From positions 30,001 through 62,000 of the forward strand of contig JAPZAR010000030.1 of the NCBI GenBank assembly GCA_027460535.1: a stretch of DNA of 32,000 bases. The letters are read 5' to 3'. The notes under the pieces are model-generated. The model saw only the letters and a list, made by a program, of their open reading frames with translations, was not told the origin of the DNA and did not search any database. Positions 15,052 through 20,950 of the stretch are shown piece by piece (position 1 is the first letter of the stretch; each line of letters opens with the position of its first letter). This DNA comes from Candidatus Methanoperedens sp. GTDB taxonomy: Archaea; Halobacteriota; Methanosarcinia; Methanosarcinales; Methanoperedenaceae. Both the position numbers and the translations under genes were made by a program.

Positions 15052-15186
15052 TTGGTACTCCGCATAATATACTCTTTGGATGCACACAACCCTCATCGCC
15101 GGTACATGCACTTAGCCTACCTGAAGGGTTGTTGGCAGGCGCACATTCGCGTTTGCATGATCCCTTTAGGGCGGGGGGCAATTTTC
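15052..15186 (+). repeat. Interspersed structured repeat, copy 3 (short form)
   Basis: The head 'ttggtactccgcataatatactctttggatgcacacaaccctcatcgcc' matches copies 2 and 4. The central hairpin block is replaced by 'ggtacatgcacttagcctac'. The core 'ctgaagggttgttggcaggcgcacattcgcgtttgcatgatccctttagggcggggggca' is retained. Confidence 0.85.
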
Positions 15187-15579
15187 AAGACTTTGTGATT
15201 GATGCAACGGCGATACGTTGCCTTTGCGAAGCGTGCTTTTGATGAATGAAAACACAATTAACCGCTTCTGTCTGCTGGAGCGTAGGACTGTCGCCCAACC
15301 GCACTAAGGACGCCCGCAAACGGGTTTGGGCTATCCTCGAACCCTCTGGGCAGCGTGTTCAGGGGGGTGGGTCTTGGAAGTGTTATATGCTGGAACAATA
15401 TGACACAGAGACAAGAATATTTGCTAAAGAAATTAATATGCCTTAAAAATATAGTTATGAGAGATAAAGAATGTGGGAAACACCGAATCGGTTATTTGAA
15501 AGGATTAGGTGTGGTGAGATGCATGAACCTGAATCCCATAAGATCGTTGACCGTACACTTGAGGATATTAGAAGAATAA

Positions 15580-17709
15580 TCACTTAGCATTAAATCCTTG
15601 TTCCCAGACACTCCTTACATAATCGATATGAGCTTCCATGTGCTTAATTGCTCTTTCTTCATCTTTGTCGATGATAGCATCCAATATTTTGCTGTGTTGA
15701 CGTAAAGTCTCAAAAGATTGAACTTGTCTGCTTAGCGGAGATAATGATCTATATAACAATCTGCAAATATCATAGAATAGACTGTTTCCACTTGCGACAG
15801 ATATCCCCACATGGAAGTCAAAATCATACTCCCATATATCCTTCTCCTTTGCTTTTTCATCTCCTAGAGCTTTTTCAAATTCTCCTAAAATGGTCTTTAG
15901 AGCCTCTATGTTCCGAGTATCTCTATATTTTGCTGCCAGTCTTACTGAACTTAACTCCATCTGTTTGCGGACTTCCCAAATCGCTTCAAAAGTGCAGATA
16001 TCTTTTCTATAATCTGTTCGGAGTTTTTCAGTTAAAATATCGAAGAAGTGATTGATATCTATGTTAAAAATTACAGTATTATTACTCTCCCAAAAATTAA
16101 GTTCAACTTCTGTTGGATCTCTCATAATGGCATAGAACTGAACCTTGTTCTCTAAATGCCGATTGGTATCTTTAATAATATTATTAATGTTATCATCATC
16201 CAGACTATATCCAACAAATAAAATGGTTTTTATGAAAAAAAGCTCCTCGAGTTTATTGAAGATAATATAATCTCTATCAAAGGAACCATGTATTTTGTAA
16301 ATTGTTGTATCAGATTTCATCTCCAACATGTCTTTATCTTCTTGAATTAGATTAATTCTTCCTCTACGTTTTTTGATCGCATCTTCTAAAATGCAGTCAT
16401 TATTCGTTGTGATAGAATTTTTGATAGTTAAAATATCTGCAATCTTTTCATAAATCGAGGAATTACCGCCACGATTCATGATAACGTCTGTTAATCCGGA
16501 ACCAATAAATAAAACTGCATTCCCCTCAAATATCTCAGTAATTAATCGTTTCAAACTAATCTGATCAAAAAAGGGAGGATTATATGTAGGAATAAACCCA
16601 TTTCTAACTAAATCTTGTTCCATTTCAGCGGGTTTGTATGAAAAAACATCGAATTGACTTAATTCGCAATTCTTGTAGGAAATATAACCTGGAGCTACGC
16701 TACAAAGAGCGGCCGTGATAGATCCTCCGCCATCATTCAACAATTCCATAATCATCTCTTTTTTTTCTCTTGTACTTATGAAAATATGTGAATATGGGAA
16801 TGCCAGTCTAAGAATTGCGGTGATAAGCTTCAAGTGGTTATCGGAGACCTGATATTCATGCTTTGGCTGGAATGTCATTCTAGTAGCTGTTTTCAAACGA
16901 GGTATCCCAAATATCGGAAAGCAGTTGAATTTATTTCTTAAAAACAATCCATGTTTGATCAATGCCATGATATCGAATTTGAAATCATATAATCCGAGCA
17001 ACACACCAATCCCCACATTTCTTATTCCACTATTACAAATTCTTTCTTGAGTTTCTAGCCTGTACTGATAATCTTTTTTTGAAACACACTCTTTATGAAG
17101 CTCGTCGTATGTTTTCTGGTGATATGTTTCCTGCCACGATAGCACACTGTCTAAACCCACACTCTTCAACGAACTATAACTCTCCTGCGATAAAGGAGGA
17201 GAGTTTAAACCAATCATCCCACCACCTTCTTTCTGCGTTAGTTTATTTTTCAAATATCTTATATATTCCATCATTTCCTTTATGCCAATTTTCGGGTCGT
17301 CTGAGAAAACCAATTCTATTGTTCTAAAACTATTTTCTTCCGTCAAATAATCAATTTCCTTACAATATTGGTCAAAAAATAAGCGGGTTCTGCTGTGGCT
17401 GTCATTATTACAATTAAATGCACAATAAGGACATTTGTTTATACAATAATTTGTAATGTAAAGCGGAACCATTAGATTTATTTGATGTCCTAGCGCATCA
17501 TTCCTGACACACCTTGCAGTTTTCAACAGATTATGAAAATCTTTATTATTGGTGTTTGGATCTATATGGAGAAGTGAAGCAATTTCTAGTTCATTCAGCT
17601 CTTTTAATTTTTGCGCCTTCTCAAGAACTTTGTCAACATTCTTAAGTTCTGATTTTCCCTTATCTAAAAGATAATTGATTTCATCAGGGTCTATGCTAAA
17701 TCCATTCAT
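15580..17709 (-). CDS. Triple-domain fusion: ThiH/HydG-like radical-SAM enzyme + SIR2-like domain + FCD (FadR C-terminal) ligand-binding domain
   Basis: 709 aa.
- aa 1 to about 380: CxxxCxxC 'CINKCPYC' (C89/C93/C96, nt 17422-17445), with 'SWQETYH', 'YRLET', 'GIPRLK' and 'ISTRE' colinear with ThiH.
- aa about 385-565: 'VLFIGSGLT', 'IYKIHGSFD' and 'ILFVGYSLDDDNIN' resemble the SIR2_2 family.
- aa about 570-705: 'DFDFHVGISVASGN' and 'QHSKILDAIIDKDEERAIKHMEAHI' are FCD hallmarks.

An AAGAGGT Shine-Dalgarno-like site precedes the ATG. Confidence 0.8.
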   Translation of the reverse strand: MNGFSIDPDEINYLLDKGKSELKNVDKVLEKAQKLKELNELEIASLLHIDPNTNNKDFHNLLKTARCVRNDALGHQINLMVPLYITNYCINKCPYCAFNCNNDSHSRTRLFFDQYCKEIDYLTEENSFRTIELVFSDDPKIGIKEMMEYIRYLKNKLTQKEGGGMIGLNSPPLSQESYSSLKSVGLDSVLSWQETYHQKTYDELHKECVSKKDYQYRLETQERICNSGIRNVGIGVLLGLYDFKFDIMALIKHGLFLRNKFNCFPIFGIPRLKTATRMTFQPKHEYQVSDNHLKLITAILRLAFPYSHIFISTREKKEMIMELLNDGGGSITAALCSVAPGYISYKNCELSQFDVFSYKPAEMEQDLVRNGFIPTYNPPFFDQISLKRLITEIFEGNAVLFIGSGLTDVIMNRGGNSSIYEKIADILTIKNSITTNNDCILEDAIKKRRGRINLIQEDKDMLEMKSDTTIYKIHGSFDRDYIIFNKLEELFFIKTILFVGYSLDDDNINNIIKDTNRHLENKVQFYAIMRDPTEVELNFWESNNTVIFNIDINHFFDILTEKLRTDYRKDICTFEAIWEVRKQMELSSVRLAAKYRDTRNIEALKTILGEFEKALGDEKAKEKDIWEYDFDFHVGISVASGNSLFYDICRLLYRSLSPLSRQVQSFETLRQHSKILDAIIDKDEERAIKHMEAHIDYVRSVWEQGFNAK

Positions 17710-20635: not shown

Positions 20636-20773
20636 GTTCTGCCTTAACTTTTGTTGCATTTGCTCGAATGACCTATGAGTCAAGGTAAAATTTATCAAAC
20701 TTACTCAAGATTCATCTTGACGATTTGAGAAAACCGTGCCATCTTTTAGATCATAACGATTTTATTCATTTAT

Positions 20774-20950
20774 TTGGATGCGCACAACCCCATAGAACGC
20801 TGTGACCACGCTCGGACCTTCGTCCGAGGCATACTGGTGCATGCGTTACTGGACCGAAGGGCTGTTCGTAGGCGCACATTCGCTTTTGCGCGCTCCCTGT
20901 AGGGCGGGGGGCAGTCCTCATGATTTTGCTTTGATGGCTCCGTCTTGGTC
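20774..20950 (+). repeat. Interspersed structured repeat, copy 4 (long form with partial tail)
   Basis: It runs 'tttggatgcgcacaacccc...gtgaccacgctcggaccttcgtccgaggcatactggtgcatgcgtt...ccgaagggctgttcgtaggcgcacattcgcttttgcgcgctccctgtagggcggggggcagtcctcatgattttgctttgatggctccgtcttgg'. The tail matches copy 5. Confidence 0.9.

Follow-up and report, generated by a model that had tools for sequence, protein, structure and literature searches.

Do two copies of an interspersed repeat that stand on either side of a pair of unusual genes mark the ends of a mobile unit, or does the pair exist as a module of its own that happens to occupy a place between repeats? The question is raised by a locus of Candidatus Methanoperedens sp. 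in which a gene for a fusion of radical-SAM (rSAM), SIR2 and FCD domains, and a divergently oriented gene for a HEAT-repeat protein with a C-terminal nitrilase (C-N hydrolase) domain, lie between two co-oriented copies of a non-coding repeat. We analyzed the locus within a 32,000-nt stretch of contig JAPZAR010000030.1 (positions 30,001 to 62,000; assembly GCA_027460535.1), hereafter the window, and compared it with homologous loci, which are given L-numbers. A first-pass annotation of the window had proposed that the two genes, together with a 57-codon open reading frame (ORF) between them, form a three-gene system that behaves as one insertable unit bounded by repeat copies 3 and 4. We find that the two genes make up a genuine module, both rare and conserved, that this module is not a repeat-bounded mobile unit and that the repeats do not travel with it. 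On balance, and with confidence only a little better than even, we favor the reading that the slot at 15052–20950 holds a conserved two-gene module, a candidate defense system, and that the repeats which delimit this recombination-prone slot are not the ends of the module.

A HEAT gene adjoins every rSAM-SIR2-FCD homolog of 69–97% identity for which the contig is long enough (Methanoperedens-type sequences, four other lineages), in divergent order in L121, L122 and L123 (97%) and in L126 and L127 (79%), and in convergent order in L128 (69%) and L129 (71%); one further homolog, P0003, was not placed on any contig. The proposal that the pair is a functional system rather than a chance neighborhood is supported by conserved adjacency in two gene orders, and is qualified by the frequent occurrence of HEAT-nitrilase genes without an rSAM partner, to which we return below. 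The DNA between the divergent genes is presumably a shared promoter region. The system would consist of two genes and not three, because the 57-codon ORF is not conserved: its C-terminus is changed in L121, it is truncated in L128 and L129, and it is absent in L126. A small plus-strand ORF at about 15449–15579 was also considered as a gene and rejected, being frameshifted in L121, where the locus is 92–96% identical.

In these relatives the pair stands without the repeat. No repeat copy was found beside it in L121–L129, with 10 kb of flank on both sides in L121 only. DNA homology between the window and L121 spans 15404–19487. On the rSAM side it stops 27 nt from the point where copy 3 ends in GTCTTGG and the GC content drops, and this left boundary therefore fits the notion that cargo starts where the repeat ends. 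On the HEAT side the boundary is not at copy 4 but within the HEAT gene itself, at the point where the two proteins have different C-terminal domains.

Within the window itself, repeat family and profile agree with the earlier description that the two co-oriented copies 3 and 4 flank the rSAM-SIR2-FCD gene, the 57-codon ORF and the HEAT-nitrilase gene, and that only these two large genes, the small ORF and intergenic DNA lie between them. These two copies are members of a larger set. The family has an 81-nt core present in five co-oriented plus-strand copies (at 11456, 13661, 15120, 20853 and 22749; 69–84% identical to the reference copy), and a profile built from the five (nhmmer) recovers all of them at E-values of 5e-34 to 2.5e-53 and nothing further in the 32 kb. 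A five-way alignment confirms the five copies, and additional modules are common to copies 1 and 2 and to copies 2 and 3, plus two solo pieces. Since the five copies form one array inside the island described below, copies 3 and 4 are not specific to the pair.

The limits of the flanking copies required some revision. Copy 4, placed earlier at 20774–20950, runs from 20768 to 20948, a near-identical result. For copy 3, placed earlier at 15052–15186, the start stands and the end does not, as the copy continues to about 15377. There is clear homology between positions 15176–15250 and a ‘type-2’ 3′ module of L010, L023 and L029 (z = 7), and the run at 15201–15377 has a GC content of 56.5% and terminates at GTCTTGG (15371–15377), beyond which GC falls to 34%. 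For these reasons the GC-richer non-coding stretch, whose existence had been noted correctly and which had been taken as a separate item between the repeats, is most probably a part of copy 3. Beyond 15250 the copy resembles the long forms of L010 and L062 only weakly (z = 2.6), and the assignment there rests on collinear short matches and on composition. The heptamer GTCTTGG occurs on the same strand at three junctions (15371, 20942 and 21782). The 840-nt segment after copy 4 has it at each end, at 20942–20948, where it closes copy 4, and at 21782–21788, as if an insertion had split one repeat copy.

The array sits in a stretch of DNA that is variable among relatives. In L143 and L145, two Methanoperedens contigs whose ProRS (prolyl-tRNA synthetase) is 86% identical to that of the window, Hel308, UPPS (undecaprenyl-diphosphate synthase) and ProRS are contiguous, with a UPPS–ProRS spacer of 55–70 nt, and homology of the window with them stops at 9199 and resumes at 24474; on these grounds we treat 9200–24470 as a variable island. 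In it NikR, flavodoxin and DUF6064 come first and the repeat-partitioned array after them; the array spans 13 kb (about 11.4–24.3 kb) between UPPS and ProRS, and in it the slot of the pair is the third, between copies 3 and 4. GC content is 25–42% in the cargo, 45–56% in the repeats and 47–48% in the core genes, and the toxin–antitoxin modules HicAB and MazF/RelN occupy slots neighboring the pair. Among 80 ProRS loci examined, none contains a repeat copy. At the level of the strain, each contig with the ProRS or DUF6064 protein of the window itself either has the same arrangement or breaks inside the repeats: independent assemblies end in copy 1 (∼11484; L134, L137–L139) and in copy 4 (∼20911; L132). 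Since assemblies break at a multi-copy repeat, as is expected for such a repeat, short-read bins will often miss the island. Neither an empty site nor a circle junction, the signs of mobility that the first-pass annotation had suggested looking for, was seen among the assemblies of the window strain, all of which have the same arrangement.

To characterize the two proteins, domains were called with Pfam, NCBIfam and PADLOC profiles. In matches to PDB sequences, residues 7–377 of the fusion align over the TIM-barrel core of HydG (4wcx, 9.5e-58) and of ThiH (7pd1), and the CX3CX2C motif is present, with NYCINKCPYC aligned to the HydG cluster motif. The C-terminal auxiliary-cluster domain of HydG is missing and the SIR2-FCD half stands in its place. 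The SIR2_2 domain is recognized by PF13289 (4.4e-19), by the PADLOC ThsA profile (1.9e-11) and by the ThsA structure 8wc0 (1e-3), and its motifs can be read in the translation as FIGSGLT (GxG), TTNND (TTNxD) and KIHGS (HGS); the asparagine of TTNxD and the histidine of HGS we take, from ThsA, to be the catalytic residues. An exhaustive profile-free search with the SIR2-FCD half returned 4 representatives at E ≤ 1e-30 among 1.84 billion, with further matches covering one of the two domains each, and a word-indexed search found about ten clusters of rSAM-SIR2-FCD homologs. The architecture is very rare. Around a distant homolog, P0008, the locus L124 carries a SEFIR/TIR-FGE-sulfatase fusion (5046–6500) about 3.5 kb upstream, followed by two large ORFs, one without a family match and the other with only a faint match to Band_7; these surroundings may be another defense-type neighborhood.

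The HEAT-nitrilase protein combines a repeat array with an enzyme-like end. Its HEAT repeats are encoded by a tandem array of 108-nt units (18188–18994, 7.5 copies, 81% matches), and because the array in L121 has one 36-aa unit more than that of the window, the length of this sensor-like region changes between close relatives. Among PADLOC models, CARF_nitrilase matches the C-terminal 264 aa at 3e-86, and the RT-nitrilase (RT, reverse transcriptase) models match them more weakly. An AlphaFold model of residues 470–847 (pLDDT 92.4) matches nitrilase-superfamily structures with probability 1.0, including Nit2, Nit3, beta-ureidopropionase and amidases (E 2.5e-9; TM 0.5–0.6 per target). In 47 homologs, conservation of a Glu-Lys-Cys triad (fragment residues E164, K212 and C249) is 90% or higher. 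The modeled fold and the triad together place the domain in the nitrilase superfamily. The HEAT–middle–nitrilase architecture belongs to a large family of more than 100 clusters at 45–66% identity, with hosts that include Methanoperedens, the anaerobic methanotrophs (ANME) ANME-2c and ANME-1, Argoarchaeum, Freyarchaeota and others. Across the loci that carry the pair, the conserved part of the HEAT partner extends from residue 1 to about 470, which is where the L128 and L129 proteins end; the L121 protein has a different C-terminus of about 130 aa that lacks the nitrilase domain, which the window version carries. The HEAT partner thus appears to have an exchangeable effector end. In L121 (7524–9629; 6927–7478), a 183-aa ORF with a weak PK_C match comes after the HEAT gene.

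Judged by its predicted domains, the module would most likely be an anti-virus system of the abortive-infection type. This reading draws on domain content, on the toxin–antitoxin neighbors, on a DrmC-like PLD gene that adjoins the pair downstream of the rSAM gene in L121 (12545–13057), and on the role of the C-N hydrolase in DRT1. The C-N hydrolase domain is essential in DRT type 1 defense, and HEAT-like repeats and C-N hydrolases are recurring modules of the UG/Abi defense RTs (PMC9226505). In the mechanism that we propose, the hypervariable HEAT array and the FCD domain would act as sensors, and the SIR2 domain (through NAD+ depletion) and the C-N hydrolase would act as effectors. The link from sensing to the effectors would be a small molecule, probably derived from tyrosine, that the radical-SAM domain produces or consumes. 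The repeats, for their part, would delimit recombination-prone slots in which foreign AT-rich cargo, including the pair, is placed; the exchange could be site-specific, with an enzyme encoded elsewhere, or homologous between copies.

What the repeat is can be approached through its distribution. A genome pattern search, which used 17 core positions with 16 specified bases, returned at least 120 loci, most of them chance matches, and the repeat was found in at least 13 species-level genomes of Methanoperedens, a number that is a lower bound. The element is oriented, GC-rich and non-coding, is about 190–330 nt long and occurs throughout the genus. A core of about 45 nt is near-invariant, even where it lies outside the search pattern, and the 5′ and 3′ modules around it are exchangeable. 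The order is a 5′ module A, an optional hairpin module B, the core, and a 3′ end made up of modules D and E; the 5′ pieces at 22660 and 24261, labeled F, are homologs of module A. Copies are intergenic, and many are single and lie between or beside housekeeping genes, which are also the predominant neighbors by Pfam (106 neighboring ORFs, 25 most frequent of 142 families). Where copies cluster they are co-oriented, in five of five in the window, three of three in contig CABMIB010000053 and two of two in L110. The distance from core to E is about 40 nt in the short forms (copy 5, L083, L107, L110, L073 and L001), about 330 nt of GC-rich DNA in L010 and L062, and 0.5–1.2 kb with genes such as DUF4352 in L119 and L088; between copy 4 of the window and the solo E at 21797 it is about 840 nt and includes three small ORFs.

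A coding function of the repeat was rejected, since six-frame translations have no conserved open frame with a start across the copies and indels of 6–7 nt shift the frame. A viral origin was rejected as well, the single IMG/VR match being a chance match inside a coding region. At the gathering score, Rfam 15 yields tRNA-Gly only, and at E ≤ 5 it yields nothing relevant to the repeat in 11000–24500. RNAalifold returned no consensus structure for 26 repeat cores, and a four-sequence alignment of long forms gave a weak consensus of −15.5 kcal/mol that we do not trust. The L062 long form, however, folds better than its shuffles on the plus strand only (z −3.1 vs −0.9), an asymmetry that leaves room for a transcribed RNA. 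The TCTTGG-like motif recurs at some 5′ and 3′ repeat edges, though not consistently and not above chance in the window. Several small features of the repeat were also seen. The hairpin that follows the conserved GCGCACATTCGCTTTTGCG is replaced in L079 and L088 by a different hairpin (AGAACGC...GCGTTCT) and has an inserted inner hairpin in L062 (∼3500–3540), an exchange that may point to a conserved position for the stem. Where the E module ends (window 22880–22894, L083 and L073), it contains a Shine-Dalgarno-like GGGAGATGGAT, a T-run and a 4-codon mini-ORF (ATGAGAGTTGTATAA and variants), which is kept in three copies.

Two pairs of orthologous loci show where gene content changes relative to the repeat. 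L073 and L015, whose flanks are 93% identical, diverge inside the repeat between CTGTCTTG and a following G and re-converge 2.2 and 1.4 kb later, beside a solo A-like piece (L073 ∼5510). The split between L063 and L119 comes directly after the G-run of the core, and their cargo then differs over 1.3 and 3.6 kb. Relative to the core, the variable DNA lies 3′ in both pairs. We infer that the 3′ part of the repeat, which often ends in GTCTTGG, is a recurrent breakpoint of gene content between close relatives. The same cassette was not seen in two different arrays. In two species a tRNA-Arg(TCG) gene that is oriented like the repeat precedes the repeat core by about 25–50 nt (L073 3152–3227 and L015 3815–3890); at these loci the variable cargo follows the repeat, and no partial copy of the tRNA was noticed at the far boundary.

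Several observations weigh against the favored reading. The linked pairs all come from one genus-level clade, and their linkage could therefore partly reflect shared descent. The distant homolog P0008 (37% identity) has no HEAT neighbor. The three HEAT-nitrilase contexts sampled, L222 (integrase, group II RT and Prim-Pol), L223 (AbiJ-TIR and RelA_SpoT) and L224 (transposases), all lack an rSAM neighbor; these surroundings are mobile or defense-type, and HEAT-nitrilase proteins appear mostly to occur without the rSAM partner. The defense function is a prediction from domain content and neighborhood. PADLOC-DB v2 has no system model for the pair and gives domain-level matches only, which come from different systems (ThsA, LmuA, CARF_nitrilase, HEAT_CxxC_PD-DEXK and RT-nitrilase). 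The scores of the rSAM domain, 206.6 for ThiH and 180.9 for HydG, are far below the respective NCBIfam equivalog cut-offs of 380 and 312 bits. As for the repeats, the breakpoints in the two ortholog pairs (n = 2) are at different positions, +75 and +48 nt from the core start, the five occurrences of GTCTTGG in the whole window are not a significant excess over the 2.9 expected, and no recombinase or transposase recurs beside the copies (106 neighboring ORFs, among the 25 most frequent of 142 Pfam families).

Other accounts of the locus can be set against the same observations. That a discrete three-gene unit of 5.9 kb, able to insert or excise, has copies 3 and 4 as its terminal direct repeats seems to us very unlikely. 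In its favor, the two copies have the same orientation and are 81–84% identical to the reference copy, deletion or circularization of the segment could follow from recombination between them, and on the rSAM side the homology with L121 ends no more than about 30 nt from where copy 3 does. Against it, the pair occurs in L121–L129 with no repeat copy, the array has five different cargos separated by five copies and two solo pieces, the breakpoint on the HEAT side (19487) is inside a gene, the third supposed gene is not conserved, and all assemblies of the strain have the same arrangement with neither an empty site nor a circle junction; the claim of a single insertable, repeat-bounded unit is accordingly weakened. 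A different account makes the repeat a selfish or regulatory intergenic element that takes no part in gene movement, either a small RNA gene or similar to miniature inverted-repeat transposable elements (MITEs) or repetitive extragenic palindromes (REPs), and the pair a mere neighbor in a defense island. This we regard as doubtful. It would accommodate a repeat that is non-coding, intergenic, genus-specific, multi-copy and often beside housekeeping genes, the high conservation of the core's primary sequence, the strand-specific folding of the L062 long form, and the TATA-like boxes upstream and oligo-T run at the end of the E module that can be read in the sequence. It leaves unexplained the co-orientation within clusters and the synteny breaks inside the repeat, and a visual check of the ends of 26 copies turned up neither terminal inverted repeats nor a consistent target duplication; the cores, moreover, have no RNAalifold consensus structure, and no Rfam match was obtained even at E ≤ 5.

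A further account is an integron-like cassette platform, in which the repeat would be the recombination site at the 3′ end of a minus-strand cassette and a site-specific recombinase encoded elsewhere would insert circles at a GTCTTGG-type core. Copies are strictly co-oriented within clusters, most cargo genes are on one strand with the repeat 3′ of them, toxin–antitoxin cassettes are present as in chromosomal integrons, the variable segment starts 3′ of the core in both ortholog pairs, GTCTTGG stands at 15371, 20942 and 21782 on the same strand, and solo 5′ modules mark the far end of the variable segment (window 24261; L073 ∼5510). Against this, Pfam scans of the 30 major ORFs of the 32 kb reveal no recombinase domain, and phmmer with a single archaeal Xer-type query, a search of limited sensitivity, found nothing at E ≤ 1 in the window, 19 repeat loci and six rSAM loci. 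An attC array in particular was rejected: neither strand of the window has an RYYYAAC...GTTRRRY pair, and the repeats fold no better than shuffles into an attC-like hairpin (z −0.35 to −2.5, with no consistent end-to-end pairing). The slots are also multi-gene and of mixed orientation, and many copies elsewhere are single, between housekeeping genes. We therefore hold such a platform to be unlikely. Equally speculative, and no more probable in our judgment, is the boldest version, namely that the repeat is an undescribed gene-capture platform, an oriented site of about 200 nt with a 45-nt core, a crossover near GTCTTGG and a recombinase encoded elsewhere, which would be an analog of integrons without IntI or attC and one of whose cassettes would be a new immunity system. 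The coordinates of the features are collected in Table 1.

Table 1. Features of the variable island and its repeat-partitioned array, in window coordinates
Feature	Coordinates	Strand	Remarks
Variable island	9200..24470	none	15.3 kb; 37% GC vs 47–48% in flanking core genes; absent in L143 and L145
Repeat copy 1	11398..11553	+	Modules B, C; 130 nt upstream of DUF6064 start; same-strain assemblies break here
Cargo slot 1	11678..13435	mixed	168-aa ORF (+); GYD-domain gene (12318–12662, −); HicA (12963–13196, −); HicB (13193–13435, −)
Repeat copy 2	13554..13769	+	Modules A, B, C
Cargo slot 2	13912..14870	−	AtzH-like 108-aa ORF; MazF/PemK toxin (14290–14523); RelN-type antitoxin (14619–14870)
Repeat copy 3, long form	15052..15377	+	Modules A, C; type-2 3′ module (to ∼15250); GC-rich extension ending GTCTTGG
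rSAM-SIR2-FCD gene	15580..17709	−	709 aa; rSAM aa 7–377; SIR2_2/ThsA-like aa ∼420–545; FCD ligand-binding domain aa 577–696
57-codon ORF	17696..17869	−	Not conserved in homologous loci; probably no system component
Divergent intergenic region	17870..18091	none	222 nt; AT-rich, 30% GC; conserved in window, L121 and L126
HEAT-nitrilase gene	18092..20635	+	847 aa; ∼8 HEAT repeats; helical middle region; C-terminal nitrilase-superfamily domain (aa 581–844)
Repeat copy 4	20768..20948	+	Modules A′, B, C, D; ends GTCTTGG; same-strain assemblies break here
Small-ORF segment	20949..21788	+	840 nt; AT-rich; 63-aa zinc ribbon (21058–21249), 53-aa ORF, 54-aa ORF; between copy 4 and solo E
Solo 3′ module E	21797..21844	+	83% identical to 22838–22885
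223-aa ORF	21946..22617	−	No family match; 31% GC
Repeat copy 5, complete short form	22655..22890	+	Modules A/F, C, D, E
390-aa ORF	22927..24099	−	No family match; 25% GC
Solo 5′ module A/F	24261..24299	+	ProRS end of array; 87% identical to 22660–22698

Housekeeping genes surround the array. On the UPPS side these are tRNA-Gly, PspA, a HerA-type ATPase, ThiC, a Hel308-type helicase and UPPS, and also NikR and flavodoxin, and on the ProRS side ProRS, proteasome beta, FttA, an AIR-synthase-related protein, TatC and IlvD. Because these housekeeping genes are archaeal on both sides and the closest homolog of the rSAM fusion (97% identity) is annotated as Candidatus Methanoperedens sp., the window is chromosomal DNA of a Candidatus Methanoperedens archaeon; it is contained in a 116-kb ENA contig, ERZ27247940:k141_415263. 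The gene of the HerA-type ATPase (1504–3210; DUF87, with strong PADLOC HerA matches) is divergent from PspA and has a 4-nt overlap with the start of ThiC (3207–4472). It was seen with neither a NurA nor a SIR2 partner, and it is an odd operon partner for a thiamine gene. The neighborhood of ProRS has been repeatedly rearranged within Methanoperedens: in L144, proteasome beta and FttA are inverted and precede ProRS by 8 kb (1–1810 vs 10001–11437), and in L146–L149 none of the window's genes is present upstream of ProRS.

Methanoperedens (ANME-2d) oxidizes methane anaerobically, and to our knowledge little has been published on its immunity and genome plasticity. Full-text literature searches returned no paper on defense systems, integrons or interspersed repeats in Methanoperedens, and searches for the domain combinations of the pair returned nothing relevant. 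If the pair is a defense system, it would bring a new enzymatic logic to SIR2-based immunity, joining a tyrosine-lyase-type radical-SAM domain, a SIR2 NADase and a ligand-binding domain to a HEAT sensor with an exchangeable effector, and it would offer a first handle on the large uncharacterized HEAT-nitrilase family of ANME and Methanosarcinales archaea. Independently of the defense reading, an oriented, genus-wide repeat that coincides with the breakpoints of cargo exchange is a testable entry into how Methanoperedens archaea acquire foreign genes.

Finally, we compared the module and the repeat with known systems. The SIR2_2 domain, its motifs and the location in a variable island with toxin–antitoxin modules recall Thoeris ThsA and other SIR2 NADase effectors (SIR2-HerA, DSR and LmuA-type). 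Here, unlike in ThsA, the SIR2 domain has a ThiH/HydG-type radical-SAM domain on one side and an FCD domain on the other; a SLOG/STALD or Macro sensor domain is lacking, and the slot has no ThsB/TIR partner gene. The radical-SAM domain shares the TIM-barrel core and the CX3CX2C motif with the tyrosine- and tryptophan-lyase enzymes ThiH, HydG and NosL, but it scores far under the equivalog cut-offs and has no thiamine or hydrogenase genes nearby. The HEAT partner shares its C-N hydrolase domain, fold and triad with the CARF-nitrilases of type III CRISPR loci and the RT-nitrilases (DRT1/UG1, UG5 and UG29), whereas in place of a CARF or RT domain its sensor-like part is a HEAT array and a helical region. 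The array as a whole resembles chromosomal integrons and clusters of attC sites lacking an integrase (CALINs), including Vibrio VCR-type arrays, in its co-oriented similar repeats, AT-rich and mostly same-strand cargo, toxin–antitoxin modules and strain-variable position, and departs from them in lacking IntI, attC core sites and an attC-like hairpin, in a repeat of 190–330 nt with conserved primary sequence, and in its multi-gene slots. With MITEs, REPs or bacterial interspersed mosaic elements (BIMEs) and Correia-type repeats the element has in common that it is short, non-coding, genus-specific, intergenic, mosaic and assembly-breaking; it differs from them in that no terminal inverted repeats were noticed when the ends were looked at by eye, and in that its copies are locally co-oriented and polar relative to the variable DNA.

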